From: Candidatus Omnitrophota bacterium
Lineage (GTDB): Bacteria > Omnitrophota > Omnitrophia > Omnitrophales > Aquincolibacteriaceae
Length of the DNA stretch: 64,000 nt
Assembly (NCBI GenBank): GCA_903856085.1
Contig: CAIOAT010000044.1
Location: 25,402 to 89,401, forward strand
Direction: 5' to 3'
Below are positions 2,049 to 64,000 of the stretch, in pieces. The position numbers and the translations under genes are program-made. The notes under the pieces are model-generated. The model saw only the letters and a list, made by a program, of their open reading frames with translations. It was not told the DNA's origin and searched no databases. Position 1 is the first letter of the stretch, and each line of letters begins with the position of its first letter.

Positions 2049-3429
<1,381 letters not shown>

Positions 3430-33103: not shown

Positions 33104-33118
33104 CCGGTTTTTCGACCG

Positions 33119-33884: not shown

Positions 33885-34274
33885 ATGGAAAGAGATAAGC
33901 GCAAGTTCAAGCGCTTTGACGCGTACATGAGCGTGAAGTTCACCGGAACCGAAGCGACGTCTGTTAAAGGAATCGGGTTGAGCCGGGATCTTTGCCGCGA
34001 AGGGTTGCAAATCAATTCAGACAAGTCGCTTCAGGAAGGGACTCCATTGGATTTGGAGATCACAATCCCGGATGATCCGAAGCCTATTTTCAGCTCTGGG
34101 TTGGTTATGTGGTCAAGGCCTTCCGAGGGAACGGACCAGGGCTATGACCAGGGAGTTCGGCTGCTGAACATGGATCCGGTCGATAAATTCCGCGTCCTGG
34201 ATTATGCGTACAATCACTGGCTTGAAACTAAGGTCAATGACTACGCGGATCCCGAAAGCGTTCAGGAGTGGTAA
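33885..34274 (+). CDS. PilZ-like domain protein
   Basis: KRKFKRFDAYMSV (RxxxR) and GIGLSRDLCREGLQI segments; an AAAGGAGG RBS upstream. Confidence 0.55.
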   Translation: MERDKRKFKRFDAYMSVKFTGTEATSVKGIGLSRDLCREGLQINSDKSLQEGTPLDLEITIPDDPKPIFSSGLVMWSRPSEGTDQGYDQGVRLLNMDPVDKFRVLDYAYNHWLETKVNDYADPESVQEW

Positions 34275-36548: not shown

Positions 36549-36586
36549 GTCCTCAGAACTGTGTAACCTCAGCGGAGAATTCTTGA

Positions 36587-37774: not shown

Positions 37775-37867
37775 GCCAAAAAAATAGTGCTTTAGTTTCA
37801 TAGGACGATATATAATAATACCCTGATTTTTTAAAACCACATTTGCACCTCCTGGGGGCTACTCGTT

Positions 37868-38707: not shown

Positions 38708-38731
38708 GCCACGCTTCCTGAGAGATGGCCC

Positions 38732-40603: not shown

Positions 40604-40616
40604 GAGCTCGCCCGTT

Positions 40617-41495: not shown

Positions 41496-41568
41496 GGGCC
41501 TGTAGCTCAGCTGGTAGAGCGCTGCATTCGCATTGCAGAGGCCAGGAGTTCGACTCTCCTCAGGTCCA
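41496..41568 (+). tRNA. tRNA-Ala (anticodon CGC)
   Basis: 73-nt cloverleaf: acceptor GGGCCTG/CAGGTCC with the G3:U70 Ala identity pair, D-arm GCTC/GAGC, anticodon stem CTGCA/TGCAG with loop TTCGCAT, T-arm AGGAG/CTCCT with loop TTCGACT. There is no encoded CCA. Confidence 0.9.
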
Positions 41569-41590
41569 CTCTTTCCTTAATGCCTAAGAA

Positions 41591-44800: not shown

Positions 44801-47800
44801 ATATCAATTTATGGGGGATAGGTCAGTTCCCGCGCTTGCACGATCATTTGGTTGAAGATATGCCCATCTTCGGATTACCGCTGAGAAAATCAGGCGGAAA
44901 AGTTGATGGTCTCGAAATGCAGGAGCTTGGGAATTATGCGGCCTCAACGCTGGTTTATACGGATGATGACGATGCGAAGCTTGCGGCGGTCATGGCCAAG
45001 ACCGCGCAGGAATTGTTGGAGGAAAAGATCCCGCATCAGGTGTTTCTTGCGGCCGGAAAGGTCATTTTTGTTCTGCGCGGTAGCGATCCACAGACGCTTC
45101 ATAAAGTCGAAGGGGAAAATTTCGCCGGACGGTACCTTACGGGTCAATTTGTCGGAGGGGTTGTCGGGTATCCGAAGGCGAGTGCCGATAAGATCACGCC
45201 TGAAAAATATCAGGACATAATGAGACGGGTTAGTCAGCCGGTCTCGATACGTGCTCGGATCATTTCAAATTTGCAACAGAAGGGGGTGGTTTCTCCTGCC
45301 CGGAATAATAAACGTTCCGAGATGCGTAAAGATACGGCGGAACAAGTGACGACCGAGATCTATGATCCGAAGCAAGCGGGGATCGATGTCAGTGTGAATC
45401 CCGTGCCAAGCGGGCATTTCCGGTATGACCAGGCGTCGAAACAACATTTCTGGGATGGAAAACAGGTTCTTTTTCGTAAAGACGAAGGCATTGCTAGAGA
45501 ATCCGCAGCTCCAGGAGCCCGGACTTGGCCGGTCGATATTGCCTGGGAAGAACATGAAAAAGATTTTGCGGCGGCTCATCCGTTGTTCGATCTTCACTCC
45601 TATGGAAATCTTTACAACAACGCTGGGTTTGTTGTCTTTGACGGGAAAACAGGCATGCTTTATTACCAGGCCGGGGAAGCCTTTGAGAAAAAAGCGTATT
45701 CGATGCTGGTTTCTTGGAACGATCGCACCGTTACCTCCGAGAATGTCCGTTTCGAACAGATCGCCGGAGGCAAGGCCGGTAAAGTTCAGGTGTTTGTTGA
45801 TGGGCAGTCGGGACCGATTCAGGACAAGATCCGGTTCGCGGTGTTCGGACAGAGATTAATCCACAAAGGCGCCGTGGTGCCTCTTGAGGCGGTCGCAGAT
45901 CAATTCGAGGACCTGTTTCAGCTTTATCGGCTTCCTCAATTCATGCAATGGAGAGAAAACGCGGCGCCAGTCTATGGACGAACGATCGGTGTGGAGGAGT
46001 TGGCCCGTTGGAGGACTACCGGCGATCCCAGGGACAAGGCCTTATTTATGGACGTTGTTCGTCATGATGGCTACATGGAGATTGATCTGACAGGTTATTT
46101 GCGGGAAGAAAAAGACAGCAAAGTCACTGTCAGGACCCTCAAAGAGATCAAGGACGGGGCTCTTACTCCGTTTGGCTATAAAGAAGTGGGGCTCGCGGAG
46201 CCGCAGGCGTTAAAGCGAGGCGAATATTTTATCCAAGACAACAGGCTGCATATTCGTTTTCTCCCTTATCCGTACCCGCATCATGTGCTCGGGATCACGG
46301 CATCGGGGAAAGTCGTTTCGGTTCTTTACATAGGAGACAAATATAAAAAACAGGGCGTTACGCTCCAAGACCTTCCTGAGAGCGTTCGCGAGCGCTATGG
46401 GAATCAGGAGAAAGATCCCATCCAGGAACTCCTCGTGATTGCGCAGGGTCGGGACAGTTTCCGCCGTCGTGACGGAAGACTTTCCGAACGCAGTCCTTAT
46501 ATCAATCTCAAGGGAACTGCCGCCATCCTTTTTGAACGGATCATGCCACCTGCCGCATCTACTTCTCAGGATTTGCTTGCGCCTCGCTCCGAGATGCGGA
46601 ATGCTGATGCGTCAGCGGTAGGCATGGCTGCTGTAAAACGACAAGCCATGGAAGCTCCCGACCCAGAGGGTTTCCTGAAAGTTGTAACAGCGTATCGCCT
46701 CGGAAAAGGATTGCTGACCACCGATAAGACTTTTTTCCTAACGGGTATTTATGACTTTCTTGGAAACACCGATCCCATTATCTCGACTCTGGAAGATATC
46801 GAAAGACGCACGAAGACCGGGCGGCAGCTTTTAGAGGACGTTTGGCAGGATCCTCAACAGCGTTCCAAGCTGTTTGATTTTGCCATTTCATACCATTACA
46901 GCTACACGCGCGAAGACCGGCTTCTAGAATTGGTTCGTAAACTTATCGAGGGGATCCAACAGCGGGGGGATTTTGCTTCGCAGGAAAAAATAACCATTCT
47001 GGACATAGGAACCGCTCCTAAGAAGTTTGGCTCTCCGACCTCGATGCAGACGATGGAAATGTTCCGCGCTGCTTTCCCAGACAAGCAAATAGAACTTAGC
47101 TCCGTAGACATGCAATTCCCAGCTTCATTTAAATTTAATGCCGAAGGAGTATATGTTGATGAGCGGACAGGTATCCGTTACGTCAACTACGACATCCGTA
47201 AGGGACCGTTGCCATCCGCTGATATTGTTATTGCCGTGAATCTGTTGGATCTTTATCAGGATGTTCAGGAGAGGAAACGTATTCGGAAGAATATTTTTCA
47301 ATCCAGCTTGAAGTATGTCGTTACTGGCGTCAAGAGTACGGAGGATATTTTCCGGCGTTCTAACGAGCAATCTGATCAATGGACAAAGATCGCAACAGTC
47401 CAGTTAATGGAGGAATGGTATGCGCAAAGTCTCTACCAAGGATTGGGTTTTTCTTCAGAAAACATAGGCTTCCAGAATTTGGCGGTGCGAAACGACTTGT
47501 ACGTCAATTACGAGTTCATGAAACCGCTTTTCGCGTTGCTCGAGAAGACAAAAACAAGCCGTTATCATGCCGCGTTCCAGGTTCTTACCGTGCTCTTTTT
47601 GCGCGGGGAATTGGAGGCACTTGTGTCGGGTGAGACGGTGAGTTTTCCAATGGAAGGCAGGCCTTTAGCAAAGTACTTTCCCGCAGAGAAGGATCGGGAG
47701 GTTATCCACCAGTTTCTGGTTTTTATGCAGGATCTGAAAAAGACGAGGGTTTTGAAGAATGAGGCATCGAACGATCCGAATCATGTGATCCCCCGGTTCT

Positions 47801-50187: not shown

Positions 50188-50579
50188 TCGAACCAATGCT
50201 TATTCAGTCTTTTTTGTGATTTTAGCTGATTAAAACCATCAGACATCCTCTTTCCATGCCTGCGGAGAGTTGCTGTATTTTTTAAATGCCTTTTCGTCGA
50301 AGTTCTCGGCGGTTTCTGGCAAGCTTTCACTAGTAGGCCCCTCCTGAATTTCAAAAAAATCTTCAAGCTTAAAATTGGTTAATTTTAAAAAACTTTTTAT
50401 TATCATGATAAATACGCTTATCTTAAAAATCAAATTTTAGCCAAAAAGTCTCTGTTTTGTGTGTTTCATAATGCTATAAGAAATTATAAGGAATATTTTA
50501 TAAGTTAATATATTTTAAAGGAGTGTTATAACCAGTTGCTTGGTAACAGGTTACATCATTAAATTTTTTTTAGCTTTGC

Positions 50580-50608
50580 TTGACTGGGAACCTTCTATTG
50601 TGTATATT
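50580..50608 (+). promoter_or_regulatory. Near-consensus sigma70 promoter for G2: TTGACT-17nt-TATATT
   Basis: TTGACT at 50580-50585, an exact 17-nt spacer, TATATT at 50603-50608. It sits in a ~30% GC spacer about 107 nt upstream of the G2 ATG. Confidence 0.5.
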
Positions 50609-50714
50609 TCTATTAGGTTCTTAAGACTTTAAAATAAGTTTTATATCGTAGTTACCAATCAGCTATGAGCGCGTAGAGTAGTTTTAATCGAATCTGAGAG
50701 AGGACGGCAATCCG

Positions 50715-53700
50715 ATGATCAGCTGGCAGCAACCGATGATCAAGCCTTGGCTAAGAACCGTCGCCTGCCTGACCGCCTTTGTTTTTCTTTTTACGAGCGT
50801 GGTCTGGGATGGTGGCGTCAAAGCCTATGCCGCCGCCTCTAATTCCGTAAGCGTCACCCCCATCGAGACATTCAAAGCCAATGCCGCGTCTTCTCTGATC
50901 GACCGTCCCGATCTTCCGGACAGCTACGGAACGATCAAGGGAACTTTTAAAGGGAGTCGCGACCAGATTGTCCTTCACATCCAGGACGCGCACGTCAACG
51001 ATGAAGCCCAGCGCAACATTGCGCACATCCTCCAGTATTTTTCCGAGAAATACCAACTTGGCCTCGTGAGCCTTGAGGGTGCCTCCGGCGAACTTTACCC
51101 CGAACTTTTTTCTTTTTTCCCGAACAAACAGGCTCGCCAGAATGTTGCCGATTACTTCCTGAAAGAAGGCCGCCTCACGGGTCCAGAATATCTTGCGATC
51201 GTCGAAAAGCCCGCGATGACGCTTTATGGCGTGGAAGATAAGGAGCTTTACGAGGAAAACCGGAAGGCCTATGTGGATGCGCTCCAGTTCAAGGACCGCG
51301 ATGAGAAGATCTTGGCGGAACTGAATAAGGTCCTTGAAGGCATCAGTCGTTTTGTGTTTCCCGAGGAAATGCGCGAACTCGTTCGTCGCCGTGCCGCGTT
51401 CCAAGAAGGCGGACCGGAGCTGGTCTCTTATGTCCGCTATCTGGTGGAACTTGCCCGTAAGCACAATATCGCGCTTGATGAATATCCCGGGATGCACTCT
51501 CTGATTAAGCTGGTGGATCTTGAGAAGCAGGTTGATTTCGACAAGGCCGAAAAAGAAACCGATGCATTGATTAACGATCTCAAGCATGTGCTGACGCATG
51601 AGAAACTCTCCCGCTTTCTCACCAACACCGTTCACTTCCGTATGAAGAAGATGAAACGCGCCGCCTATTATGGGTACCTCCAGGATGAGATCCAGGGCGT
51701 GAGCGTGGCTCAAAGTGGCGGGGAGGAACTGACTACCAAGTACGCCAATGTGATGGCCTATGTGGAGTATATGAAACTTTATGATGCGATCGATGTTTCG
51801 ATCTTTGACGAGATCGATTTCCTTGAGAAGACCGTCAAGAACAAGCTCTTCACGAATCCTGAGCAGGTCCAACTCGATCACATCCTTCGAATCTATGACA
51901 TCTATTGCAAGATGTTCGATTTTACATTGACCAAGCAGGACGCCGAGTTCTATTACACCTATCAGAATGAGTTCAAGTCAGAGACTTTTGTAAGTTTTCT
52001 CACACCGCTCATGTCGAAGTACCACTTCACCTACGGATTGCCGTCCCAAGTGAAGACACTCGATCAGGATCTGCCGCGCGTGGAGCGCTTTTATAAAGCC
52101 GCTCTGGAACGCGACCAGGTGTTGATCGAGCGAGCGGTTGAGAAAACCCTTGCCAGCGGGCAGAAGATATCCGCCATCGTTACAGGCGGTTTTCATACGC
52201 CCGGGATCGAGAAGTACCTTCGTGAGAAGGACATCTCCTATATAGTAGTCGCCCCGCGTATCACCAAGACGATTGATAAGAAAAAGGAAAGCGCGCTCTA
52301 TGACGCCGCTTTGCGCCAAGCCCCGCTTTCGATCGAAAAAGTTCTCACGGAAACATTTCTCCAACCCAAAACCGGCGTTCTGAACGATCCTCGGTTCCAG
52401 TTGCAGGCATGGTTGGCGATTTCTCCCAAAGGAGAATTTGATTTCAAGTCCGATGTGGCTTTGTTCTTCCCCCTGACCGCCGCAACGAATATTTTTGAAG
52501 TCGTGAATGCGGCAAGAGAGCAGGCCCGGCAGGAGGGGAAGTCGCTCTCCAATGAGCAGATCACACCCTTAGTGGCCAGCGAGATCGAAAGGATGAAAAA
52601 AGATGCGGCCAGGGATTTGTCGGGAGGTGATCTGAGTAAAGTCGAGGCGTTGCTCAGTATGTTTCACCCCGAAGCATTCTCAGGTAATGTGCTCTGGGTA
52701 CCTGCGGGAAACAGTGGGGACTTCCTGGCTTTTGTGCTCCACGGTAAGACGGAAAAAATAAGCGAAGAACCGGGAGCTGTGCGGGGGACTCGACAGACTG
52801 TTTCATTTGGGCCAGAAGAAAAGACAGCGCTGTCTTTCTATCGGGTGCGTGGCTCTTTTGTTCCGGACGCGATCAGAGGAATGGTTCGTGCTGAGGCGCG
52901 TGTTCTGGCGACCCCTCAGACAGGACCTATTGCGGTCGTGGCGGGTCCAAACGCGAAGCAAGAGGCTCGTGATCGAGAAATAGCAGCCCAGATCCAAGCG
53001 ATCAGGGCGGAAGCCAGGATGAAGGCAACAAAGGAAGACGTCAGGGCCGCGGCTAGAGTTCAGGCGAATCTCCCCATGTTTTTGGATTTCATAAAAGCAT
53101 TTGGCTATAAAGGCCCCATCGATAGGATCCAGGCCGCAGTGATAAGGCCTGCCGATCCCAAGGAAGATAAACCTACGGTCGAGTTCCTGAAAATTCTTTC
53201 AGATCCTGAACTCAAACAGCGTCTCCAGGCCCTCGCAGTATTCTTGTCATCATTGAATCCGGAAGAGCTTGCGACAAAGAAATTGTCGCAGAATGAGTTG
53301 CGTCTCTTCTTGCTCTGGGGGGCTAAAGCTAACGGGCTCAAAAAATATCCGGAACTGGCCAAGATTTTAGAGGACATTCTCGCAGGTCGAACCCCGTCCG
53401 TTTCGCAGGCTGCGACTCCTGCAGAGGTTTCTGCGGCAAAAGCTCCTGCGGTGACTACTCCTGCGGCTATTCCTACAGCAGCAACTCTTGCAACCGAAAC
53501 GGCGGATCAGGTCAAGGCGCGGGTTGAAAAGGAACAGGGCGGTTACTTCGGCTCGTATGTCCGGCGCGGAGTTCTCGGGTGGAGTGCTGTCGGACTTATC
53601 GCCGGATTACTTTTGGGGATGATCATGCCGGCCACAGTGGTAGCTTTTCCACTTGTTTTCGGATTCGTAGCGTTCGTGTTGCGGGCGTTGAGGGCCTGGT

Positions 53701-56700
53701 CTGTTAAGAGTGGGATCACCGTTCAGGCCAATCCGAAGGGTGCCGGATGGATTGTCACTTCAGCAAACGGAAAGAAATGGCTCGAAGGTCTTTCGGCTCC
53801 TGATTTGTCGACGATCCAGGATAAAAACGAACAGCGGCAGGCTTCCATTGATTACAAACTTCAAAATTGGCCGGCATATCGGAAAATGCACGAAAGTAAA
53901 ATTTTCAGCGATGATTCCGAGTCCGAAGCTGCCGCTAAGGCTGAGGCATCCGCAAAGAAAAGGATCCTCCAGTTTGTGGGGATTGGGACGGCTGTAGGCG
54001 TTATTTTGGGGGCCACGACCGTACTTCCCGTGGTGGCGACAGTTGCTGTTTCCGCGATAACCGCCGGGTTTTTAGCTGCCGCTGTGTTGAAAACACGGGC
54101 GGAGTGGAAAAAACAGGGCGGGACGCAGAATATAATGAAGCAGGGTGTTTTTACGGCGATCGGCCTTGCTCTCAAAATTTTTGTGAGCATGCCCTTTCAT
54201 CTTCTTGATGGTTTTATCCTCCAATATTTCCGCCTTCGCATCAATTATTTTATCTTGGGCGCCAAGAATCAACGCTGGATCACGAATGCCGAAACGCAAG
54301 CGATGGTTGAAAATGCCAGGACCCATGAAGCCGATAAGAATCTTTCACGGACAGACCGTTTTATCCGTACGGATCTGGGATACGGGATCTGGGTCACACT
54401 CCAGGCTTCGCAGATCGCCGCTCTCTATGAATTTTTTCAAAAACGGGCCAAACTTTTTGTCTATGGCCAGCTCAGTGGTATTGTTTTAACAGCCGCCGGA
54501 ACCTCGCTTCCCGTCTTCGCGGTTTTGGGCGTCGGATTCTGGGGCTATATTATTGTGAAGCAGGTTCTAGCTTATCGTGCCGCCCAGGCGAAGGGACAAA
54601 ATCTGCCGGCCCATTGGCTCCGGAATCGCATTCTCGGGCATTTGATCTTCGCGACGATCTTTGGCGGTCTGATGTGGCTGGGCGTTTCTCCTCCGTCCTG
54701 GGCTGTGGCGTCTCCGGGTACCGGAGATGTGGCCACGAAAGCGTTGAATCTTTTTGGAATACCCATACCCTCTTTTCCCGCTATTCCCGGCGTCCCTCAT
54801 TTTGATCTTCTGAATCTTGGGGCCGTAATTCAAACGAAGGGCACGATATTTGGATTTTTAGGGGATAAGGTCCACCTCACTTTTCAGGCCATTGCCAGCT
54901 CTGCAACACTGAATTTTCTTTTGGCAGTGACGACTCAGATCCCGAACAAAATGCGTGAGATCATGATGCGCGACACGATGGTCGATATGGCCCGCATTTT
55001 AGTTCCCCAAGCAAAAAATCTTAAGGAAGCATTCGACGGGCTTGCCAAGTATGGGATCACACCCTCAAATTTTTCTCTTTCGGGGATTTTGGCTCTGTCG
55101 GGTGAGAAACAAACGCCGGAATGGATGGCCCTTTCTGCTGAGCAGCGGGCGATTGTTCTCAAGCTTATCGAGCGCGATCTGAAGGATCGCATTTATGGAA
55201 TGAACCGTTACGATGCGGGGCTCGCTCTTACCGCTCTGGGTCGCGCCATTCGTGAAAATGATCCCGAAGGTCAGGTTTCTATTCCCGAAAAACTCGCACG
55301 AGGACAGGGGATTGGCTATCGCATGCGGGTGAACGCCGCCGCTCGCCGTGAAGTTTTAACGAGTGGGTCTTTTTGGGTTTCGATGGTTTTTGGGACTTTT
55401 TCGATGTGGGTGGTGACGCACGAGATCGCGGCTATCGTTCATTATGCTGAAGGTATTGATAAAATAATCAGTTCGGCTTTGGGTGTGGATTTTCATCTTT
55501 TCGGTACAGGTATTAAAGGGATCGAAGGAGACCAGTTGAAGCAGAAGGAACATGCCGAGATGGCCCAAAGGGGAGAGCATGTTGCTTTCACGGATCGTTT
55601 GATCGCATCGGGACTGCTCAGTAGTCTTCAAACGAGTGTACAAGAAGTCTCCACGAACTTTGTGGTGCAGCCTTACATGATCGCCAAGCGGACGGCAGAT
55701 CAATTGCCGGCCATAAAAGCGAACCTTGGGAAAATAGCGGATGAACGTTTTGGTTTTGCGCCCACCAAGGCAAAAGCTGATTTTATTGACAGCGCTCACC
55801 GGCAAATTGCCGTAATGGAAAAAGCAACTTACTGGTCTATTGTTGGCCAGAAATTGGAGGGGGTTGCCCATTTTGCGGGATCGGCGTTCAATGCATTAGG
55901 CTCTGTCCTTGTGACATCGGCGAGAGCTGAATCGTTGCCTCCGATGATGGTTCCACAAACTGAAGTCAAGGAAGGTCTGCAAGCCGAAATTCCGGCAACG
56001 AAACCTGCTGAAGTTGCGGCGGTAGCGCCTGTTCTGCCTGCTCCCGAGGCGCCGAGAGTTTCTGTTGAGGCTCCGGCGGAAGTAACGAAACCGGCTGAAG
56101 TTGCGGTGGTTGCTCCTGTCCAGCCTGCTCCTGAAGTGCCGAAAGCTGAAGTCAAAGAAGCCCCTGCGGTTCCTGAAACTGCGTTGAAACTCGAAATGCC
56201 TTCGCCGTCGTTGAGGCCTCTGACGGATGTTCAGCCTGCTCCTGAGGCGCCCAAAGTTTCCGTTGAAGCTCCGGCGGAAGTAGCGAACCCCAAAACGGTG
56301 GCTCAGCCGGCGCTTCCGACAAAAATATTTGAGATTAGTCGGGAGAATGTGAGGGAGGGGGCAAAAGGTGCGGAGCGGATTGCTGCGAAAACTATTGTCC
56401 TGACTCTCAAGGCCGAGGATATGGAAGCGCTTATTCGAGAAGGAAAGGCTCTTGCTTTTTCATATAAGGATAACGGGTTCTGGAAAGCGAAGACCAAAAT
56501 TCCGAGAGCTTTGAATGATCCCGAGGTCACACACTTCAGTATTGGTAATGATGTCTATAAGATCGGTTTACCCACGACGGTGGTGGGTGTGCAGGCGACT
56601 CCAAAAGCTGTGACGTCATCCACTTCAGTCAAAGCCCCTCAACCCGTTGCCGCGAAGCAATCGCCTGCCCAAAAAATCGGTTTGGCCGCTGCGGCGGCCG

Positions 56701-59700
56701 GTCCCGTGGCTGCTGCGTCAGAGTTGTTCGTTTCCGCGCTGGAGCCGGCCTCGGCAAAATTTACCACCATGGATCTTCCTATGCCGACGACGGGGATACG
56801 CGATATTTTGATTACTGCCATGAAAGATAATCCCATGTCGCGGCAGGCTGGGGTTGAAAAGGGCATTAAGGATAAAACCGTTGAGTCGTTCGCTTGGTGG
56901 TACCGCTGGATCACCCTAGACCTGCAAGTTTCATATAATTTTATGCCGCGCGATCTTCCCTTGTATCAGAATAAGTCCGGATCGGGACCCAGCAAAGATG
57001 TGGATTTTTCATTGGGTTGGGAGGATGCCGGAAGCGGGAACATAAATCTCGGGCTTCCGATCTATTCCCCCGAGGGATATCCCGCCGAGCACATGGAGGC
57101 TGTTCCTATTCTCGATGCGAATGGACAACCGACCGGGGACACAGCGCTTGTTAGCAGACCGGGTATCCCCACAACGCCATTGACGCAAAGTCAGTTTGAT
57201 GCGCTACGGGGCGTGACTTTCACTCCAGACGGCAACAACTATGTGCTGTCGGGATATCAGCCCGTGCTGGATAGTGTTGTCATTCCGATGGGAGATGTCA
57301 ATATCACCAAAGGGCTCCTGGTGCAAAACCTGAATGCGATCGCCGGGAACGAAAGCTTTTGGAAGCTCTTCAATCTCCCTGCCGGCACGGCTTCCCAACT
57401 GGTCAGTGATCCGGCCTATCAAAAGGCCATGGGATTTGCGAGCTATTTTGCGTCGCGCTATGACAACCCGCTTAATACGGGCGATAACCTCAAAACTGTT
57501 TTTAAAGGCGCGACTCTTCCGCAGATCATGGAATCGATGGCGCGCATGAAAGCGACGGCAAGAAAGAATCTTGGCCGTGATTTTAGTTTGGATAATCCCT
57601 ATGATGCGGCGCTTCTGACTTATCTTTCCAGAGCGGATCTCACGGATCAGGCGGAAGGAACTACGATCGTCCGCGAGATCTTAAAAGAGCGGGATTGGGA
57701 AGCGAAACTGATCCTGCGTTTTGAACCCCTGAACCTGGCTCGAAGCCGCCAGGCGAAGATCAGCAAGGCGGAAGCGGAAGCTGCGAATGCGGACCTCCTG
57801 AAAACCGAGACGACCGTCCTTCGGAACACTACCCAGCAGCTTTATGTGATCGCGCTGGCGAATCAACAGATTGCTGACAAAGAAAAACTTATCATAGCGT
57901 TTGAAGCGGACGATGCCGAGCAGCGCGCTGTGCGGGGTGTCGAGGATAACTCCCTGACGCATACCCGCATTACAAGTGAACTCCAAAAACTCAAGATCCA
58001 GATCATCGTCCTGAAGACCGAGCGGGACGAGGCCAAAAGGAAAGTCCTCGAACTGGCGGGGCGGCAGCCGGGTATAGATCTGGGTTATCCGGTCGAGGAC
58101 ATTACTCTTAAAGTCGTCGGTGATGCTGTTGCCCAGGTACCACTTTCGCAGGCCGATGTTCAGGCCGTGATCGAAAGAGCGTTCGCGAGTTTGCATCAGG
58201 CCGTGGCATCGAAGGCAGCGCTAGGTGGAATTGACGCAACTTTGGCCGTTCCGCAAGTCACCGTTGACATTTTAAGGATGGCAGGGATATGGGACCTCGG
58301 CGATAAGGTTGCCGTCGAGATCCGCTTAGATCTCAGTTGGCAGATCAAAAGTCTTTTTGAGAGTAAGGTTGCAAATGCCCTCTTTGAATCCGAAGCCTAC
58401 AAGTTCGCGTCACGCCTTCGCGGGATCTACGAACGGCATAACCTGCTTGAGCGAGAAAGTGTCCATACCGCAGAATTTATCAAATCGTTGGAAAATGGGG
58501 TTTCAGCGCAGGATCGTTTGATTGCTGAGATCAAGAACGATTCTAACAAGCACTATCGCCGAGATCTGAGTCTTGTGCAAGCCCAGAAAGACCGGGAGAA
58601 AATGCAGGAAGACCTCGACGGTTCCAGGCTGGCTCTCCAGTTGATTCAGGATGAGTTGCGGAATTATACAAAAACGGACGCCCAGATCGGGAAGCTGCTC
58701 GGAGAATTCACCAAGAAGGATTCCGGACGAGCGAAGATCATACAGACCGCGATTAGCGCCATGCGGGCCGATGTCGCGAAGGCATGGGCTGCTCAAGATT
58801 CTGTAAATCGTGATGCTATGATCCAAGAGGCTCAGACTCTGGCGGATCGATTAGCTTCGAGCGAGGCGGAATCGGCGCGGGTCCATGAGGAGATCTTACG
58901 CGAAGCAGATTATAACCTTGCCAGCATTCGTAAAGATGCAAAACTGGATGCCCTCAATTATAACGTCTCCAATTGGCTGCGACTTTCCTTGTCGGGTGGA
59001 ATCGGTTGGGGGTGGGGAGATCGAAATGAAAAGGATATTACGCTTGAAGCGACGCAGTGGAAATTACGCGCGGACGCTCAGGCGACCGCCAAAGTTACTT
59101 TGTATGATCCGACACTTTGGGCAAGAGGTCGTCAGCGGCAATTGGCCCAAGATACTGCTAAAAAACTTTTAGACCGGTCAGGTGCAGAACTGGCCGCGTC
59201 CGTCTCCGGATGGCTGAACAATGTTCGTCGTGAATCCGAACTCCTCAATCTGACCGAAGCGACATTGAAGACGAAGCAAATCGAGCTTAAAGGCGCCAAG
59301 GACGAGGCCGATGCCGAGTTGGGTCGTACTACGCCGGCCAAGGATCGTCTGGCGGTCTTAGCAAAGTCTGAAGGAGAGCGTCAAAAGCTTTATTCCTGGC
59401 GGGCGAAGGTCAGGATCGCCAGCGCAGAGGCGAATGTCGAAGCGGCGAGGATCAAGGACGAGGCCGCACGCAATAATCTTTTCAAAGTCATGATGCAATT
59501 CAAGTCGTTTGCTTTTGCCGGGGATAAATCGCCCGCGGCAGCAAAGCCGATTGCTCCCTCTAAGGAGGCGCAGCCGTCGATCAGCATGTCACCTTTTGCA
59601 CCCATCACGGATGCCGCGGGTAGAATCTCTGAATCCGGGACTGCACAACTGAAGATTTTGGCCAAGGATTTTGACGAACTATTTCGCAGCCTCGTCAGGG

Positions 59701-62700
59701 AGACAGAGGATCAGACTTCGGGTATGGGGAGCATGAGCACAAACCGGCTCCGGTACGAACAGCTTTATGACGTGAACCGCTTGCTGATGCCGCTTCAGTC
59801 CCGTTTGTCCTTGAATGATCAGGAACAGGTTCAGAAGATTCTTGGGATTTTGAAGAGTATCGATCCGGAAAAAAATGCTTCTTTGGGCAAGGAATTGTCG
59901 ACGATCGGCCGGGCGATTTTGACCAATGAAAAACTTACGGATCGACAGAGAGTGGAGAAGCTTTTTAAAGCATTTGAAGGGAAACTCGATGCTAAAAAAT
60001 ACCCGGCTCTCCGGCAACAGCTCATGAGTGTCCGAACCGCCATGTTGCACAGTGATGAAGCGATGGTAAACGAAGTTCTAAAAGCCATACCGGGGGCGAT
60101 GGATCCCGCGAAATATCCGGAGATTTTCAAAGCCAGCCGCGAGCTCCGGGCGATGCAAGCGAAGCTCGTCGCTCGGATCAAGGAAATCCAGAACCCGAAA
60201 CTTACGGCTACCGAAAAACTCAATCGACTGACCGAGCCCCTGCAGAGCTATCTTGAAAAGCAGAAGAAATTTCAGCAGCTTTTCCAGGTCGTAGAGCAGA
60301 CGGCCCTCATCGACAGGGAGTTGAAAGATATCCTTGAAAATTCCAAGGGCTACTCGGAGCCCGTACGGTTGACGATGCTTACCGGAGTGATCAGGGATTA
60401 TCTTGCCGCGGAGATCCTTTACGCCAAGAGCGACTATTTCATTAAAGATCACAAACCAAAATTGTGGAGAGAATTCGAAAAAACACGACGCCAGATCAGC
60501 GAGATTTCAAATATTGCCGCGGTCGAAGAGGTTATGCGCAAACTGGACAGCTCGGTTTGGGAAAAGAGGGAATTTGCCCATCAACTGGGCCTTGAAAAGT
60601 GGGCGTTCGGGGTCAGCGTTGGTTACAGCATTGGTTTTACCAAGGATGGCGTCTCGTCGACGTCTTTCGGGGTAACTCCATGGTGGGGGATGATGCCGTG
60701 GGCGGCGGACAAAGCCATTGGGTGGGTTCCTTTGCTCGGGAAACCGATCACCGATATTCTAGGCGTCAATCAAGATGGAAAGAATATGCAGATCCGGAAA
60801 TACATGACCGACATGAGTATCGGCGTGTTGTCGGCAGAGCAGACCCTGCGCAGCCTGGATATCACCTCAAGCCAGTTCCGGAATGAATACGCCTATTTGG
60901 TCCGGATGAAGCAGCTAACCACAGGTTTGGCGGCGGCGATCGAGGCATGGAGAAACCAGCATAAAGAGTTTTTGAATACGATCGGTGTGGATGCTACCGA
61001 AGCGGCGCTTTCCGGGGATACGACCATGGAGGCGCGTCAGCTTGCCGAGATTCTTAAGCTTGAAGAAAAAATACGGCACATCAACGGAGAATTAAGGAAT
61101 GTTCAGAACCGGTTGAGAGAGCACGGTGTGGATCCTGAAACTGTGACGACCGAGGGAGTGGCCAACGGCGATGATGTGCGGCAAGCGTGGCGGACGGGGA
61201 AGGGTCCGCTGGCAGGCCACGTAGGCGGTATGGAATCCCTTGGAACCACGGGGGGGGAGACACTTGATGATATTGCCCGGCAATCCACCGAGTATCAGAT
61301 GGCCGTGTTAGGGCAGAAAGTTTCGGCAATGGAAGAGGAATATACGACCCGCACGCACAGTTTTGGAGATTTTCCAGGAGTCACTTCATCCGGTCTCTTT
61401 TCCGATAATCCGTTCGATTCACCCGTCCGTGCCTTTGGCCAGGTTGAGAGGATCGATGGGGTTTATGATTCAGCGGGAACACGGGTTGGCACACAAACGT
61501 TCGATGTTACCGCGACCGATCTTTCGAGGACCATCACAGTCGATCTGAATCTGGGCGAGATTCTCGGAGGGTTCCAGGGGTCGGTTTACCGTTTGCGTGC
61601 TGAGAATGCCGGCATTGAGGCCGAGCGGATCCTGAAGGAAAAGAAAGCGGAGATCGCGCAGGCCATTTTTGATTATGAAACAGAAGCCGCGGCGATCGAG
61701 AAGATGGAACCTCAGGATCGACTCATGGTTTACGCGATCGTGAGCGGTAATCAAAAGCTCCAGGCGACCCTTCAGGCGACTCGAGGTGAACTTTTACAGA
61801 CCGAGAGTGAGATCCACGGCGCGGCAGTGCGATATATGGAAGCTCGCAATACGCTCAACAGCAAGAAAAGCGAACTTTTGGGGAAAGTCGGGTTCCGGAT
61901 CGAGAAGCTCCCGGATACGAGTCGTGAGGAAGGCCAGGGTTTATCACTCATCGGCGCAGATGAAATGCTCAAGGCCATGACTTCACCTGAAAAATCAAAG
62001 GCGTTCGTGGAGAAGTTAAAGAGTACAGGGATGCAAGATCCGAAGATTCAGACGCTTCAAAATGAACTGGAGCAATTGTCTCTGAATCGCAGGAGCCTCT
62101 GGAGCGATGCGGTGACAAGCGTGTGGTTCCAGGGCGGCTATCAGGATAGTGCGCTAAGAGCCAAGGCAGGGCTTGATCGCCGGCTTTGGGGGGGCGACAT
62201 GTGGGTTCGACTTCACGAAAACAAGGAACGTCAGGCTCAGGTTCGGATTGCGATGGAGGCCCAGGATAACAAGACTCGTCACGCATTTGAGACCTACCGT
62301 GCGAGGCTCAAGAGTACAGATGCTCAGGTGCAGCTCGACCAGGAACGCTTGAATGATCTCATGAAAAGATTCCCGGAGGTGACCCAGGGCGGGTTGGTCC
62401 GCGAGGTTGGGATCGATTTCGCGTTGGATTTTATGCGGGAACTGAATGAATCCTACCGGGCTTATTTTTTCGCGGTCAGGACGCATGCCCGCAACCAGCT
62501 GGAACTGGTGCAATTCCTCAATCAGAACAATATCGATGTCTCCAAGGTGGGTCTTGAATGGACGGACACCGCCATTCCAATGTTGCCCGTCGTCCCGGAG
62601 GTCGCAAAAGACATGACGGCTGGGACGGTCGAGAAGATTACCGTTGGGCCAGGGCAGGAAATAGATCTGGATACTTTTAAACAGCCTGATCCCGCAAAAA

Positions 62701-64000
62701 ATGAAAAACCATTTTTACTTCCGCAAGAAAATAGATTTCCGATTGGGCTCGATGGTGAAGCGCTCGGGATCATGGAAGCGCTTTCAGTTCGAACGGTTCC
62801 GGATCCGAAGGCTCCGCCCAAAGAACAAGCCACTCAGCAACGGATCATTCATGATAATCAGGTCATGCTGGCGAATATCACGAGCGTCGTGGCGGATCAG
62901 CATAACCTGACCCAGACCCTGGGGGATGAATTGGGTCCGCGATGGTTGGATCCGTTGAAGGAAATAGCCCAATTAAATACTAAAAACAGGATTTTGGAGC
63001 GGCTTCTGCTGCGTCCCGGCGAATCACTGGATACTGTCTCAAGAGAAGAACTTCTTCGCAGGCTGAAGGCCTCCTGGTCGCAGGACTGGTTGCCGACTTA
63101 CAGGACATCCCCGTCGGTAACTGATCAAATGAAAGATTCCGGGATCAATCTTAGGGAGATCGGCCTGCTTGATTTTATCGCCCGTCACGTTGATATGATG
63201 CTCAGTAGCGAAAAATTCAGTCAGGAGACCGGGATCAATACTCCGCAGCAAGCGACCGAATTCATCAAGACGGTTTTTGAGTCGTTGCCGGAAGCCAAGG
63301 CTATTCTTGACGAACAATACCGGTCACTCAAGGCTCCTGCCAAGGGGGCCAGTGACAAACGAGGTATTCCTCTCAATATTAATGATCCTAATGAATTTGG
63401 AATGATCTGGGGTGTGGTGTTCTATTCCAGGCTGGAAGTCGCCAAAGCTGAAAAGGAAATTGCAAAAATATCTGCGGTCCTAAAGACGCGTACGCTTGAA
63501 GAAAGTGAAAGCCAAAGGCTGAACGAATTACGAGCACGGATCCATGATCTTAAGGCCTTGAAGTTCAGTGATAAGGAGAGAAAGCTTCTTGAGGAAAAAT
63601 TTCCGGGGTATTCGCTGAATAAACGCTGGCGCGATGTCATGGATTTCCGTCTGAATCGCGACAAGCAGGATGCCGGCTATGAACTTGCCAGATTGTTCCG
63701 ATCGATCGCGGAAGGGAAATTTGATCCTGTGACGGGCGTTGTCACTTTGAAACAAATCCAGGCTGACAAGATGTCGGAAGATGCCCGGACGCTGGCGATC
63801 CAATCTTGGCTGAAGCTTTCGGGGGTCGATCAGAACGATTGGACCAAAGTCGCCTATGTGACGGGCCGGCTTGTGAGTTTGTTTGCGGATACCAAACAAA
63901 TGCCGATCCCGACGAGTCAGGACATCGAAAACTATCCCGGATTGGCAAAAGCTGCTGAGGCCACTGACCGGTTGGCAAAGCATAGAATTTCGCTCAGCAA
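50715..64000 (+). CDS. Giant protein G2, 3' end beyond window (>=4428 codons): paralogous TraB/GumN-like N-module, polytopic membrane region, Pro/Ala-rich repeats, coiled-coil tail
   Basis: Frame 0 (positions divisible by 3) stays open from the ATG at 50715 to the window end. An in-frame TAA at 50685 bounds it upstream. Codons were checked by hand at 52260, 52980, 53400, 58500 and 63960. It is absent from the ORF track only because no stop is reached, and the track has no >=60-aa frame-0 plus-strand ORFs after 50187. Signal/TM LRTVACLTAFVFLFTSVVW. IQDAHVNDEAQRNIA and GGFHTPGIEKYLREKDISYIVVAPRITKTIDKK align with G1. Confidence 0.8.
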   Translation, partial: MISWQQPMIKPWLRTVACLTAFVFLFTSVVWDGGVKAYAAASNSVSVTPIETFKANAASSLIDRPDLPDSYGTIKGTFKGSRDQIVLHIQDAHVNDEAQRNIAHILQYFSEKYQLGLVSLEGASGELYPELFSFFPNKQARQNVADYFLKEGRLTGPEYLAIVEKPAMTLYGVEDKELYEENRKAYVDALQFKDRDEKILAELNKVLEGISRFVFPEEMRELVRRRAAFQEGGPELVSYVRYLVELARKHNIALDEYPGMHSLIKLVDLEKQVDFDKAEKETDALINDLKHVLTHEKLSRFLTNTVHFRMKKMKRAAYYGYLQDEIQGVSVAQSGGEELTTKYANVMAYVEYMKLYDAIDVSIFDEIDFLEKTVKNKLFTNPEQVQLDHILRIYDIYCKMFDFTLTKQDAEFYYTYQNEFKSETFVSFLTPLMSKYHFTYGLPSQVKTLDQDLPRVERFYKAALERDQVLIERAVEKTLASGQKISAIVTGGFHTPGIEKYLREKDISYIVVAPRITKTIDKKKESALYDAALRQAPLSIEKVLTETFLQPKTGVLNDPRFQLQAWLAISPKGEFDFKSDVALFFPLTAATNIFEVVNAAREQARQEGKSLSNEQITPLVASEIERMKKDAARDLSGGDLSKVEALLSMFHPEAFSGNVLWVPAGNSGDFLAFVLHGKTEKISEEPGAVRGTRQTVSFGPEEKTALSFYRVRGSFVPDAIRGMVRAEARVLATPQTGPIAVVAGPNAKQEARDREIAAQIQAIRAEARMKATKEDVRAAARVQANLPMFLDFIKAFGYKGPIDRIQAAVIRPADPKEDKPTVEFLKILSDPELKQRLQALAVFLSSLNPEELATKKLSQNELRLFLLWGAKANGLKKYPELAKILEDILAGRTPSVSQAATPAEVSAAKAPAVTTPAAIPTAATLATETADQVKARVEKEQGGYFGSYVRRGVLGWSAVGLIAGLLLGMIMPATVVAFPLVFGFVAFVLRALRAWSVKSGITVQANPKGAGWIVTSANGKKWLEGLSAPDLSTIQDKNEQRQASIDYKLQNWPAYRKMHESKIFSDDSESEAAAKAEASAKKRILQFVGIGTAVGVILGATTVLPVVATVAVSAITAGFLAAAVLKTRAEWKKQGGTQNIMKQGVFTAIGLALKIFVSMPFHLLDGFILQYFRLRINYFILGAKNQRWITNAETQAMVENARTHEADKNLSRTDRFIRTDLGYGIWVTLQASQIAALYEFFQKRAKLFVYGQLSGIVLTAAGTSLPVFAVLGVGFWGYIIVKQVLAYRAAQAKGQNLPAHWLRNRILGHLIFATIFGGLMWLGVSPPSWAVASPGTGDVATKALNLFGIPIPSFPAIPGVPHFDLLNLGAVIQTKGTIFGFLGDKVHLTFQAIASSATLNFLLAVTTQIPNKMREIMMRDTMVDMARILVPQAKNLKEAFDGLAKYGITPSNFSLSGILALSGEKQTPEWMALSAEQRAIVLKLIERDLKDRIYGMNRYDAGLALTALGRAIRENDPEGQVSIPEKLARGQGIGYRMRVNAAARREVLTSGSFWVSMVFGTFSMWVVTHEIAAIVHYAEGIDKIISSALGVDFHLFGTGIKGIEGDQLKQKEHAEMAQRGEHVAFTDRLIASGLLSSLQTSVQEVSTNFVVQPYMIAKRTADQLPAIKANLGKIADERFGFAPTKAKADFIDSAHRQIAVMEKATYWSIVGQKLEGVAHFAGSAFNALGSVLVTSARAESLPPMMVPQTEVKEGLQAEIPATKPAEVAAVAPVLPAPEAPRVSVEAPAEVTKPAEVAVVAPVQPAPEVPKAEVKEAPAVPETALKLEMPSPSLRPLTDVQPAPEAPKVSVEAPAEVANPKTVAQPALPTKIFEISRENVREGAKGAERIAAKTIVLTLKAEDMEALIREGKALAFSYKDNGFWKAKTKIPRALNDPEVTHFSIGNDVYKIGLPTTVVGVQATPKAVTSSTSVKAPQPVAAKQSPAQKIGLAAAAAGPVAAASELFVSALEPASAKFTTMDLPMPTTGIRDILITAMKDNPMSRQAGVEKGIKDKTVESFAWWYRWITLDLQVSYNFMPRDLPLYQNKSGSGPSKDVDFSLGWEDAGSGNINLGLPIYSPEGYPAEHMEAVPILDANGQPTGDTALVSRPGIPTTPLTQSQFDALRGVTFTPDGNNYVLSGYQPVLDSVVIPMGDVNITKGLLVQNLNAIAGNESFWKLFNLPAGTASQLVSDPAYQKAMGFASYFASRYDNPLNTGDNLKTVFKGATLPQIMESMARMKATARKNLGRDFSLDNPYDAALLTYLSRADLTDQAEGTTIVREILKERDWEAKLILRFEPLNLARSRQAKISKAEAEAANADLLKTETTVLRNTTQQLYVIALANQQIADKEKLIIAFEADDAEQRAVRGVEDNSLTHTRITSELQKLKIQIIVLKTERDEAKRKVLELAGRQPGIDLGYPVEDITLKVVGDAVAQVPLSQADVQAVIERAFASLHQAVASKAALGGIDATLAVPQVTVDILRMAGIWDLGDKVAVEIRLDLSWQIKSLFESKVANALFESEAYKFASRLRGIYERHNLLERESVHTAEFIKSLENGVSAQDRLIAEIKNDSNKHYRRDLSLVQAQKDREKMQEDLDGSRLALQLIQDELRNYTKTDAQIGKLLGEFTKKDSGRAKIIQTAISAMRADVAKAWAAQDSVNRDAMIQEAQTLADRLASSEAESARVHEEILREADYNLASIRKDAKLDALNYNVSNWLRLSLSGGIGWGWGDRNEKDITLEATQWKLRADAQATAKVTLYDPTLWARGRQRQLAQDTAKKLLDRSGAELAASVSGWLNNVRRESELLNLTEATLKTKQIELKGAKDEADAELGRTTPAKDRLAVLAKSEGERQKLYSWRAKVRIASAEANVEAARIKDEAARNNLFKVMMQFKSFAFAGDKSPAAAKPIAPSKEAQPSISMSPFAPITDAAGRISESGTAQLKILAKDFDELFRSLVRETEDQTSGMGSMSTNRLRYEQLYDVNRLLMPLQSRLSLNDQEQVQKILGILKSIDPEKNASLGKELSTIGRAILTNEKLTDRQRVEKLFKAFEGKLDAKKYPALRQQLMSVRTAMLHSDEAMVNEVLKAIPGAMDPAKYPEIFKASRELRAMQAKLVARIKEIQNPKLTATEKLNRLTEPLQSYLEKQKKFQQLFQVVEQTALIDRELKDILENSKGYSEPVRLTMLTGVIRDYLAAEILYAKSDYFIKDHKPKLWREFEKTRRQISEISNIAAVEEVMRKLDSSVWEKREFAHQLGLEKWAFGVSVGYSIGFTKDGVSSTSFGVTPWWGMMPWAADKAIGWVPLLGKPITDILGVNQDGKNMQIRKYMTDMSIGVLSAEQTLRSLDITSSQFRNEYAYLVRMKQLTTGLAAAIEAWRNQHKEFLNTIGVDATEAALSGDTTMEARQLAEILKLEEKIRHINGELRNVQNRLREHGVDPETVTTEGVANGDDVRQAWRTGKGPLAGHVGGMESLGTTGGETLDDIARQSTEYQMAVLGQKVSAMEEEYTTRTHSFGDFPGVTSSGLFSDNPFDSPVRAFGQVERIDGVYDSAGTRVGTQTFDVTATDLSRTITVDLNLGEILGGFQGSVYRLRAENAGIEAERILKEKKAEIAQAIFDYETEAAAIEKMEPQDRLMVYAIVSGNQKLQATLQATRGELLQTESEIHGAAVRYMEARNTLNSKKSELLGKVGFRIEKLPDTSREEGQGLSLIGADEMLKAMTSPEKSKAFVEKLKSTGMQDPKIQTLQNELEQLSLNRRSLWSDAVTSVWFQGGYQDSALRAKAGLDRRLWGGDMWVRLHENKERQAQVRIAMEAQDNKTRHAFETYRARLKSTDAQVQLDQERLNDLMKRFPEVTQGGLVREVGIDFALDFMRELNESYRAYFFAVRTHARNQLELVQFLNQNNIDVSKVGLEWTDTAIPMLPVVPEVAKDMTAGTVEKITVGPGQEIDLDTFKQPDPAKNEKPFLLPQENRFPIGLDGEALGIMEALSVRTVPDPKAPPKEQATQQRIIHDNQVMLANITSVVADQHNLTQTLGDELGPRWLDPLKEIAQLNTKNRILERLLLRPGESLDTVSREELLRRLKASWSQDWLPTYRTSPSVTDQMKDSGINLREIGLLDFIARHVDMMLSSEKFSQETGINTPQQATEFIKTVFESLPEAKAILDEQYRSLKAPAKGASDKRGIPLNINDPNEFGMIWGVVFYSRLEVAKAEKEIAKISAVLKTRTLEESESQRLNELRARIHDLKALKFSDKERKLLEEKFPGYSLNKRWRDVMDFRLNRDKQDAGYELARLFRSIAEGKFDPVTGVVTLKQIQADKMSEDARTLAIQSWLKLSGVDQNDWTKVAYVTGRLVSLFADTKQMPIPTSQDIENYPGLAKAAEATDRLAKHRISLS
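55990..56291 (+). repeat. In-frame imperfect tandem ~87-nt repeats encoding Pro/Ala/Val/Glu-rich units (KPAEVAAVAPVLPAPEAPRVSVEAPAEVT ...) inside G2
   Basis: Units at about 56001-56087 and 56088-56170, with a third partial unit at 56229-56291 highly similar to the first. The minus-strand shadow ORF 55829-56155 is a reverse-strand reading of these repeats. Confidence 0.6.

Follow-up and report, generated by a model that had tools for sequence, protein, structure and literature searches.

What is encoded by a reading frame that opens at position 50715 of a 64,000-nt stretch of DNA and is still open where the stretch ends? The stretch, called the window in the following (all coordinates refer to it unless stated otherwise), comes from an uncultured Omnitrophota bacterium, and the frame, on the plus strand, is the first part of what is referred to below as the giant gene. 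New in this work are the fold assignment of a widespread module at the amino end of the giant protein (the N-module or head) and a possible TolC-like duct built into the same chain. On direct translation, the frame of the ATG at 50715 ran through 4,428 codons (50715-63998) to the end of the window with zero stops, as had been claimed in the initial annotation of this DNA. The remaining five frames of 50715-64000 contained 68-229 stops, and their longest open run was 408 codons. Given the base composition, a stop-free run of 4,428 codons would arise by chance with a probability of ~1e-92. GC contents at codon positions 1/2/3 were 0.586/0.406/0.569, compared with 0.582/0.388/0.582 in 18 Pfam-confirmed genes of the window pooled, and the relative synonymous codon usage correlated with that of the same 18 genes at 0.86 in frame, as against 0.70 and 0.60 out of frame. 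Codon statistics were alike in each 1.5-kb slice of the frame. The deviant codon usage or third-position GC that the initial annotation had named as grounds for abandoning a coding interpretation was thus not found, and the frame is a genuine protein-coding gene. Its start had been considered fixed by an in-frame stop, and the translation agrees: the nearest one upstream is the TAA at 50685. An independent gene call on the source contig chose this ATG as well. In the open reading frame (ORF) track of the window, only minus-strand shadow ORFs are listed in this region (e.g. 50751-51881 and 57681-58196), as had been noticed, because the track leaves out ORFs that run off the window.

The true length of the protein, left open in the initial annotation, was obtained from a longer contig. 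An exact-sequence lookup of the upstream gene (41881-50187, 2,768 residues) found it on 19 contigs from several assemblies, of which the longest shown was ENA ERZ27313059 k141_390834 (111,765 bp). On this contig the next gene starts at position 18835 of locus L001, which equals window position 50715, and its called product has 9,219 residues; this number is the gene call of the source contig, and our own translation covers the first 4,428 codons. The contig runs in reverse relative to the window (window position = 86365 - record position), and by arithmetic the gene ends at record position ~7991 (window-equivalent ~78374). Since this is ~8 kb inside the contig, the call was not cut by the contig end. 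In neither of the two protein collections did a match exceed ~7,850 residues, and the 9,219-residue product itself was missing despite the gene call on record; searchable protein collections may leave out the longest proteins and hide the largest family members.

Homologues of the giant protein were found in large number. The protein collection contained 242 of them (2,500-7,727 amino acids, aa), and the named ones derive nearly all from Candidatus Omnitrophota metagenome-assembled genomes (MAGs). When genomes were scanned with residues 1-580, 25 loci were obtained, all from Omnitrophota/Omnitrophica or from unclassified MAGs or bins. Of the 17 loci with enough sequence, 14 have an ORF that is still open where the retrieved DNA ends, after 3,900 aa or more. 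Giant proteins of Omnitrophota, with ORFs of more than 20 kb, have been documented (Seymour et al. 2023, PMC10066038). They reach 85,804 aa, carry many transmembrane (TM) helices and have N-terminal regions generally without identifiable domains (West-Roberts et al. 2023, bioRxiv 10.1101/2023.11.21.568195, with a focus on proteins of >10,000-30,000 aa). In a catalogue of 916 giant proteins of at least 10,000 aa, 39% have a signal peptide plus TM helices and 137 are without any domain match (Nielsen & Lui 2026, bioRxiv 10.64898/2026.06.07.730766). The giant gene is a further member of the documented class with signal peptide and TM helices. It belongs to the phylum as judged by its homologues, its ORF of 27,660 nt (13,286 nt directly verified) exceeds 20 kb, and hydropathy revealed an N-terminal helix followed by an AxA motif and a cluster of hydrophobic helices at aa 953-1326. 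Like other members it is largely Pfam-dark, poorly conserved outside a small part and has PilZ genes nearby. It differs from them in being, with 9,219 aa, just below the 10,000-aa cut-off of the 2026 catalogue, a limit that is arbitrary and no biological boundary. In addition, the subtype-defining SecA-DEAD, C39/S8 peptidase, dockerin and TSP3 domains had no Pfam match at E <= 5 in its first 4,428 residues (the part of the giant protein covered by the domain searches), and instead of a type II secretion locus directly upstream, dcw, gcv and lipid-metabolism genes form its context. TIKI/TraB-like and TolC-like parts, described below for the giant protein, are mentioned in none of the three publications.

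The part common to all 120 homologues listed was confined to residues 1 to ~570 of the giant protein; beyond this, only the relatives P0001 and P0002 matched. In the closest relatives the identity was 60-88% in the head and 21-34% or undetectable in the remainder. The membrane region was recognizable in two relatives only (L016, 60%; L013, 31%), and the region from aa 2016 on recurred in relatives at 21-34% identity with shifted positions. What follows the head in the homologues varies: phosphomannomutase, phosphofructokinase, SecA-DEAD, GGDEF, radical SAM and kinase domains were all encountered. With a conserved head and downstream parts that diverge or are exchanged, these proteins are mosaics. 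An exhaustive profile search with the head yielded 10,391 cluster representatives at E <= 1e-3 and 7,242 at E <= 1e-30, and in all of the 150 best of the 10,391 clusters the head started no more than ~60 residues from the N-terminus.

For the analysis of the head, 23 N-terminal modules were trimmed and aligned; their identity to the query ranges from 23 to 86%. Sixteen residues are invariant among the 23 members (P68, D91, H93, Q99, E121, G122, G172, F459, Y460, R466, G491, G492, F493, H494, P514 and Y529). An AlphaFold2 model built on this alignment had a predicted local distance difference test score (pLDDT) of 79.6 and a predicted template-modelling score of 0.69. It consists of a six-stranded alpha/beta core (strands 72-78, 85-91, 117-127, 169-173, 485-491 and 508-514) that is split by an all-helical insertion of ~300 residues (aa 176-481). 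The TIKI superfamily has a parallel beta-sheet core, and its active members carry a 2His/2Glu motif, which in RRSP is formed by E3900, H3902, E3930 and H4030 and in Bcr135 includes the pair H85-E113 (PMC6254334). A central parallel beta-sheet with flanking helices is also what the head model displays, and the motif is present with Asp as the first acid, an equivalence judged by pattern and secondary structure without a residue-level superposition: D91-x-H93 follows strand 85-91, E121 follows strand 117-120, and H494 (in GGFH) follows strand 485-491. The spacing between His and Glu is 28 residues, the same as in RRSP and Bcr135. PrgY of plasmid pCF10 has the same four motifs (GTAH, LEW, ERD and GQAH). 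When the head alignment was compared with a PrgY/TraB alignment by hhalign, the ERD and GxxH parts aligned (P 0.0016, probability 16%; reversed control P 0.056). The ChaN family (PF04187) was weakly matched by 6 of the 23 head members (best E 0.0059); in the giant protein itself neither this family nor PF01963 (TraB_PrgY_gumN) or PF05139 (Ere) had a match at E <= 5. A search of the head profile against PDB sequences returned chance matches only.

We are fairly confident that the head belongs, at the level of the fold, to the TIKI superfamily, and we conclude that it is a new, divergent family within it. Shared with the superfamily are the acid-x-His after a strand, the Glu 28 residues on, the Arg (of ERD), the GxxH after a late strand and, as in PrgY and Tiki, a probably extracytoplasmic, membrane-proximal position. 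In contrast to the known members (among them EreA/B/C, Bcr135/136 and HopBA1), the head has no significant match to a Pfam model, its first acid is Asp where Glu is found elsewhere, its core is interrupted by the long helical insertion, and it is fused to the start of proteins that are thousands of residues long. The initial annotation had placed a TraB-like module up to ~52400. The boundary holds, as the domain ends at aa ~548-570 (nt ~52360-52420), and so does the assignment if it is understood broadly as TIKI superfamily; in the narrow sense it needs qualification, since no Pfam or NCBIfam family was matched and the insertion is absent from classical TraB/PrgY.

A hydrophobic N-terminal segment (aa 12-30) was confirmed by hydropathy. 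Among 162 family members, K+R residues average 2.7 before and 1.3 after the N-terminal helix, and the giant protein has the same bias. This suggests that the helix is oriented with its N-terminus inside and that the following domain is located outside the cytoplasm; because the excess of K+R before the helix is seen in both the giant protein and the family, an exported head is suggested for both. Bacterial members of the superfamily such as PrgY, ChaN and GumN are typically extracytoplasmic.

The second recognizable part lies at aa ~2240-3110. By eye, aa ~2290-3010 consist of short beta segments alternating with very long helices. An AlphaFold2 model of aa 2250-3015, built on a three-sequence alignment, had a pLDDT of 53.8 and helices of up to 81 residues, and its lowest-confidence stretches coincided with the candidate beta-hairpins. 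In a Foldseek search with this model the top 37 matches were all TolC-family proteins (OprN, SilC, MtrE, CusC, OprM, TolC, ST50, VceC and CmeC), nearly all with a probability of 0.97-1.00, ~350 aligned columns and template-modelling scores of 0.3-0.46. As a weak model can mislead, the comparison was also made without any structure model: a seven-sequence alignment of the region from Omnitrophota relatives was compared by hhalign with a nine-sequence TolC-family alignment (E. coli TolC and seven plasmid-borne members; the eighth locus, L033, is a single-residue entry). Residues 2708-3009 aligned with TolC 7-299 (score 48.1, P 5.8e-5, probability 66%), and the segment WLRLSLSGGIGWGWG...VTLYDPTLWA fell on the first barrel hairpin of TolC. 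The controls scored 16.4 (reversed), 10.5-17.6 (twenty column shuffles), at most 26.0 (twenty shuffles of 7-residue blocks) and 15.3 (head alignment). When the whole 4,428 residues were scanned with a sliding window, the TolC signal was confined to aa ~2240-3110, with aa 2239-2667 matching TolC 10-446 over 399 columns (P 3.5e-4) and aa 2711-3108 matching TolC 14-446 (P 1.7e-3). Other helical, charged segments gave P > 0.18 throughout. A third unit at aa 1854-2217 was considered and rejected: its signal was weak (P 0.004-0.007) and the segment is Pro- and beta-rich instead of helical. With a TolC hidden Markov model (HMM; hmmsearch), the best domain among real and reversed sequences was aa 2784-2890, at only 7.3 bits, and a profile of the tail found chance matches only among PDB sequences.

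On these data we lean towards a genuine TolC-like architecture at aa ~2240-3110 and, with moderate confidence, towards two tandem TolC-type units. As in TolC, a candidate beta-hairpin followed by a very long helical hairpin occurs twice in succession, each unit has the length of a protomer (~400-430 residues), and the candidate hairpins are in register with the barrel strands of TolC. Unlike TolC, OprM, OprN, CusC, SilC, MtrE, VceC and CmeC, which are free-standing, trimerizing protomers of ~450 aa, the two units are embedded in tandem at aa 2239-3108 of a 9,219-aa chain without a signal peptide or lipobox of their own. They are 9-16% identical to TolC proteins and escape the OEP model, the weak structure model predicts no beta-barrel, and two units per chain do not simply map onto a threefold, 12-strand barrel.

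Between and beyond these two parts the protein is less well characterized by homology. Some 400 poorly conserved residues separate the head from an Ala/Thr/Pro-rich linker, which lies at nt ~53391-53489, near the ~53400 given in the initial annotation. The five or more hydrophobic helices announced for ~53570-54700 were found by hydropathy as a cluster at aa ~953-1326. Their number is probably about 6-7, but ambiguous between 5 and 8 because two stretches of 36-37 residues may be helical hairpins. Similar hydrophobic clusters were present in 15 of 17 relatives, at variable positions. Pro/Ala repeats, expected at ~56000, are present as three degenerate repeats at aa ~1763-1856 (nt ~56000-56270), and a beta-rich region lies between them and the TolC-like units. 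They exist at the peptide level only; recent tandem-repeat expansion was rejected, as Tandem Repeats Finder found no DNA tandem repeat and a self-BLAST no internal repeats. From aa 3109 to 4428, homology was found only to P0001 and P0002 (22-34% identity), without a Pfam match and with a TolC-like signal of P > 0.18. The sequence beyond the Pro/Ala repeats had been described as heptad-rich up to the window end. Its charge (K+E+R+D 0.24-0.32) and its very long predicted helices agree with that description, but few canonical heptad windows were seen in a crude scan, by which a classical continuous coiled coil was rejected, and beta-type segments are present as well. For the last 400 residues in the window, scans of genome and metagenome contig collections returned no relative.

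The overall course of the chain can be judged from P0001, a complete relative of 7,727 aa that ends with a TGA codon at a syntenic locus (L003, 10001-33184). Some five hydrophobic helices form a second cluster at aa ~7160-7356, ~400 residues before its C-terminus, and the long region of P0001 is therefore a loop of ~5,600 residues between two membrane anchors and no free tail. For the giant protein, too, a giant loop between two membrane anchors appears more likely than a free tail. The description as a giant polytopic membrane protein is thus borne out by the open frame, the gene call and hydropathy, whereas the extended fibrous tail that went with it is doubtful, given the TolC-like character of aa ~2240-3110 and the second TM cluster that closes P0001.

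How could such a protein work? The explanation that we favour, with reservations, is a giant envelope protein with an exported hydrolase head and TolC-like units. The N-terminal helix would direct the head to the periplasmic side, where the head may act as a hydrolase, most likely a peptidase. It could serve a generic maturation or processing, cleavage or quality-control step for large envelope proteins; a generic role is suggested by the complete hydrolase-type active site that is retained in the head, in contrast to the downstream parts, which swap or diverge. The helix cluster would serve as the inner-membrane anchor of the chain, the TolC-like units would span the periplasm toward or into the outer membrane, and the remainder might be a surface or periplasmic scaffold for cell-cell interaction, a role proposed in the literature for Omnitrophota giants. 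A comparable arrangement is known from MARTX and other large multidomain toxins or adhesins, which are very long secreted or membrane-associated chains with a TIKI-fold domain (RRSP) and a proposed need for proteolytic processing. In contrast to MARTX, the giant protein has neither RTX repeats nor a cysteine protease domain nor type I secretion partners nearby, and the TIKI-fold domain, an internal effector there, is a universally conserved N-terminal head here. A bolder version would see a single-chain, envelope-spanning machine in which an inner-membrane bundle and built-in TolC-like ducts link the inner to the outer membrane and the remaining ~6,000 residues are displayed or delivered, by way of the ducts or beside them, to prey or host. 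The periplasmic TIKI-type peptidase head would be a module that thousands of large Omnitrophota proteins have in common for their maturation or autoprocessing; taken as a whole, this version is speculative and rather improbable.

A number of observations weigh against the favoured explanation. Neither Pfam nor NCBIfam gave a significant family anywhere in the 4,428 residues, nor did ten overlapping fragments at Pfam E <= 5. For the head, the hhalign probability with PrgY was low, and Foldseek found no significant match (EreC was second at E 0.34). For the TolC-like region, the structure model was weak and without predicted beta-strands, the Foldseek E-values were only 1.2e-3 to 0.15, the hhalign probability was not high either, and Pfam OEP (PF02321) had no match at E <= 5-10 in the giant protein or in seven homologous tail segments; moreover, similar shapes can arise by convergence among long helical hairpins. 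The number of helices in the membrane cluster, and with it the topology, is ambiguous, and 4,791 of the 9,219 residues, over half of the protein, lie beyond the window. Finally, there are family members with cytoplasm-type enzymes behind a single N-terminal helix, such as the paralogue encoded next to the giant gene, and a TM helix after the N-terminal one is lacking in 56 of 169 long members. If the head is exported, it is difficult to see how enzymes that depend on cytoplasmic cofactors could follow it without a further TM helix. The same location paradox has been noted for giant proteins (bioRxiv 10.1101/2023.11.21.568195; bioRxiv 10.64898/2026.06.07.730766).

If these last observations are given precedence, the protein becomes a membrane-tethered cytoplasmic scaffold, with an uncleaved anchor, the head and most of the chain in the cytoplasm and a coincidental likeness to TolC. 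The neighbouring paralogue fits this alternative, since its one N-terminal helix is followed by no other predicted TM helix and by a B12-binding/radical-SAM pair that needs cytoplasmic cofactors. So do the many members with phosphomannomutase, phosphofructokinase, kinase, GGDEF or SecA-DEAD domains, the third of the long members that lack a later TM helix, and the TM-only class, which makes up 46% of long Omnitrophota proteins and whose bulk is predicted to be cytoplasmic (Nielsen & Lui 2026, bioRxiv 10.64898/2026.06.07.730766). Yet the N-terminal helix, with its positive-inside bias, argues for the opposite orientation, an AxA motif follows its hydrophobic core, and the bacterial relatives of the head are typically extracytoplasmic. 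The TolC-like signal is region-specific and survived the controls, and Pfam scans found no cytoplasm-type enzyme domain in the first 4,428 residues of the giant protein itself. We consider a cytoplasmic scaffold unlikely.

The charged, helix-rich sequence with its 70-80-residue helices could also be read, essentially as in the initial annotation, as a purely structural surface fibre, adhesin or coat, with a non-catalytic head that binds a ligand or assists folding, a generic coiled-coil stalk and no channel. Adhesion, coat or cell-cell interaction roles have been proposed in the literature on Omnitrophota giant ORFs. A head without activity would have precedents, because ChaN, a structural relative, is a haem-binding protein and no enzyme, and some TIKI-fold proteins, e.g. 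PMT, are without the catalytic motif (PMC6254334). However, D91, H93, E121 and H494 as well as R466 are invariant at identities of 23-86%, which would be unexpected for a mere scaffold. A stalk of this kind is also at odds with the scarcity of canonical heptad windows, with conserved beta-type segments that align with the barrel hairpins of TolC and with P0001, which closes with its second TM cluster and has no free tip; adhesin-type domains (dockerin, discoidin and laminin-G) were not found in the Pfam scans of the 4,428 residues. A fibre is, in our judgement, an unlikely interpretation as well. An artefact, be it non-coding DNA, an assembly chimera or wrongly fused genes, is of negligible probability and already effectively refuted: the ORF is exceptionally long and ends outside the window, and several assemblies break right at its start (L002, L028), but stops are absent against the odds computed above, codon statistics resemble those of known genes along the whole length, gene calling on a 111-kb contig yielded the same gene, 14 independent MAGs contain homologous ORFs with a length of 3,900 aa or more, and the complete relative with its TGA end occupies a syntenic locus.

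Coordinates of the features discussed in the text are compiled in the following table.

Table 1. Features of the giant gene, its product and the adjacent upstream gene (window coordinates)
Feature	Position	Strand	Details	Basis
Paralogous neighbouring gene, 2,768 aa	41881..50187	+	N-terminal anchor and N-module; ~1,450 unannotated residues; B12-binding + radical-SAM pair, aa 2017-2390	Pfam, NCBIfam, BLASTP
Promoter-like site	50580..50608	+	TTGACT-17-TATATT; conserved in L003	Consensus scan, 10/12 matches
Shine-Dalgarno-like sequence and start codon	50696..50717	+	GAGAGAGGA, 10-nt spacer, ATG; identical in L003 through the ATG	Sequence context; same start in source-contig call
Giant gene, part in the window	50715..64000	+	First 13,286 nt (4,428 codons) of 27,660 nt; 9,219-residue product	Stop-free frame, coding statistics, source-contig gene call
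Predicted signal peptide or signal anchor	50715..50837	+	aa 1-41; K10, R14; core aa 12-31; AYA|A aa 38-41	Hydropathy
N-module (head), very probable alpha/beta domain of the TIKI/TraB/PrgY/GumN/ChaN/erythromycin-esterase superfamily	50883..52358	+	aa ~57-548	
Ala/Thr/Pro-rich linker	53391..53489	+	aa 893-925	Read from translation
Polytopic membrane region	53571..54692	+	aa ~953-1326; 5-8 hydrophobic helices	Kyte-Doolittle scan
Pro/Ala-rich segment	55977..56324	+	Three degenerate peptide repeats, KPAEVAxVAPVxPAPExP[KR] ... EAPAEV	Motifs at aa 1763/1792, 1775/1804/1841, 1785/1851
Candidate TolC-like unit 1 (moderate confidence)	57429..58715	+	aa 2239-2667; candidate beta-hairpins ~2290-2335 and ~2505-2545, separated by long helical hairpins	hhalign, Foldseek
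Candidate TolC-like unit 2	58845..60038	+	aa 2711-3108; beta-hairpin candidate WLRLSLSGGIGWGWG...AKVTLYDPTLWA, then 70-80-residue helices	hhalign, TolC HMM
Charged, mostly helical region of unknown fold	60039..63998	+	aa 3109-4428, continuing past the window	Composition

Approximately 230 nt upstream of the giant gene were conserved in the syntenic relative L003, including the promoter-like site and the Shine-Dalgarno sequence (GAGAGGA, ~50698-50704) in front of the shared ATG. The former is regarded as a candidate promoter on the strength of its consensus match and conservation, which fall short of proof of function. Other in-frame start candidates are the ATG at 50736 and the GTG at 50799. 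The two giant genes are separated by a 527-nt spacer, in which a 55-residue minus-strand gene (50239-50406), with no family match on record, is called on the source contig, and three weak minus-strand promoter-like sites were seen at 50433-50382. Two other contigs end close to the start of the giant gene. Locus L028 (CAIPVD010000035.1, 8543-8623) contains codons 1-27 at 100% identity and then reaches the contig end; it derives from a MAG labelled 'uncultured delta proteobacterium', probably a binning error. Contig L002 (Logan SRR3657432_7486, 9,188 bp) stops ~12 nt before the ATG. As assemblies break repeatedly at the N-module, its many paralogues may cause short-read assemblies to fragment.

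The N-module of the neighbouring paralogue is 28% identical to the head of the giant protein (BLASTP, E 1e-17). The gene is absent from the syntenic locus L003 (9305-10000), where tRNA-Ala(CGC) is directly followed by the conserved promoter region of the giant gene. In the window, the tRNA gene (41496-41569) and the promoter region are separated by the 8.3-kb radical-SAM giant gene. Beside the tRNA gene, one lineage has therefore gained this gene by insertion or the other has lost it. Before the tRNA and the giant genes, a lipid-related block (34515-41453, plus strand) that is syntenic with L003 encodes a cNMP-binding (cyclic nucleotide monophosphate-binding) patatin-like phospholipase, a thiolase, an unannotated 279-aa protein, an AMP-dependent ligase and an alpha/beta hydrolase. 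Farther upstream, ~16 kb from the giant gene, a YajQ-family gene lies between two small PilZ genes (32735-34274, plus strand; L001 855-2394), an arrangement conserved in L003. PilZ genes have been reported near Omnitrophota giant genes, usually downstream (West-Roberts et al. 2023, bioRxiv 10.1101/2023.11.21.568195). Otherwise the window has the gene content of an ordinary chromosome, almost entirely on the plus strand, with a dcw cluster (FtsW, MurG, MurC, MurB, Ddl, FtsQ and FtsA), the glycine cleavage system, UvrD, LepA, LepB, SPOR proteins and tRNA-Ala.

In the small genomes of Omnitrophota, giant genes occupy a considerable part, which lends interest to the export, anchoring, possible cleavage and use of their products. 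The head of the giant protein is a well-folded predicted domain with an intact hydrolase-type active site, and its occurrence in over 10,000 protein clusters, whatever the downstream sequence, points to a shared step of biogenesis or processing. Should it be a peptidase, the cutting of giant proteins into pieces would become a testable question. The N-module is without a Pfam model, and adding one would annotate thousands of giant proteins now called 'hypothetical'. No TolC-type channel has hitherto been described as part of a giant polypeptide; if the assignment is true, it would locate the long middle stretch of the chain to the periplasm or the outer membrane and hint at a route to the cell surface. 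The two recognizable parts, a protease-like head and a likely TolC-like duct, suggest how the giant proteins of Omnitrophota are built.

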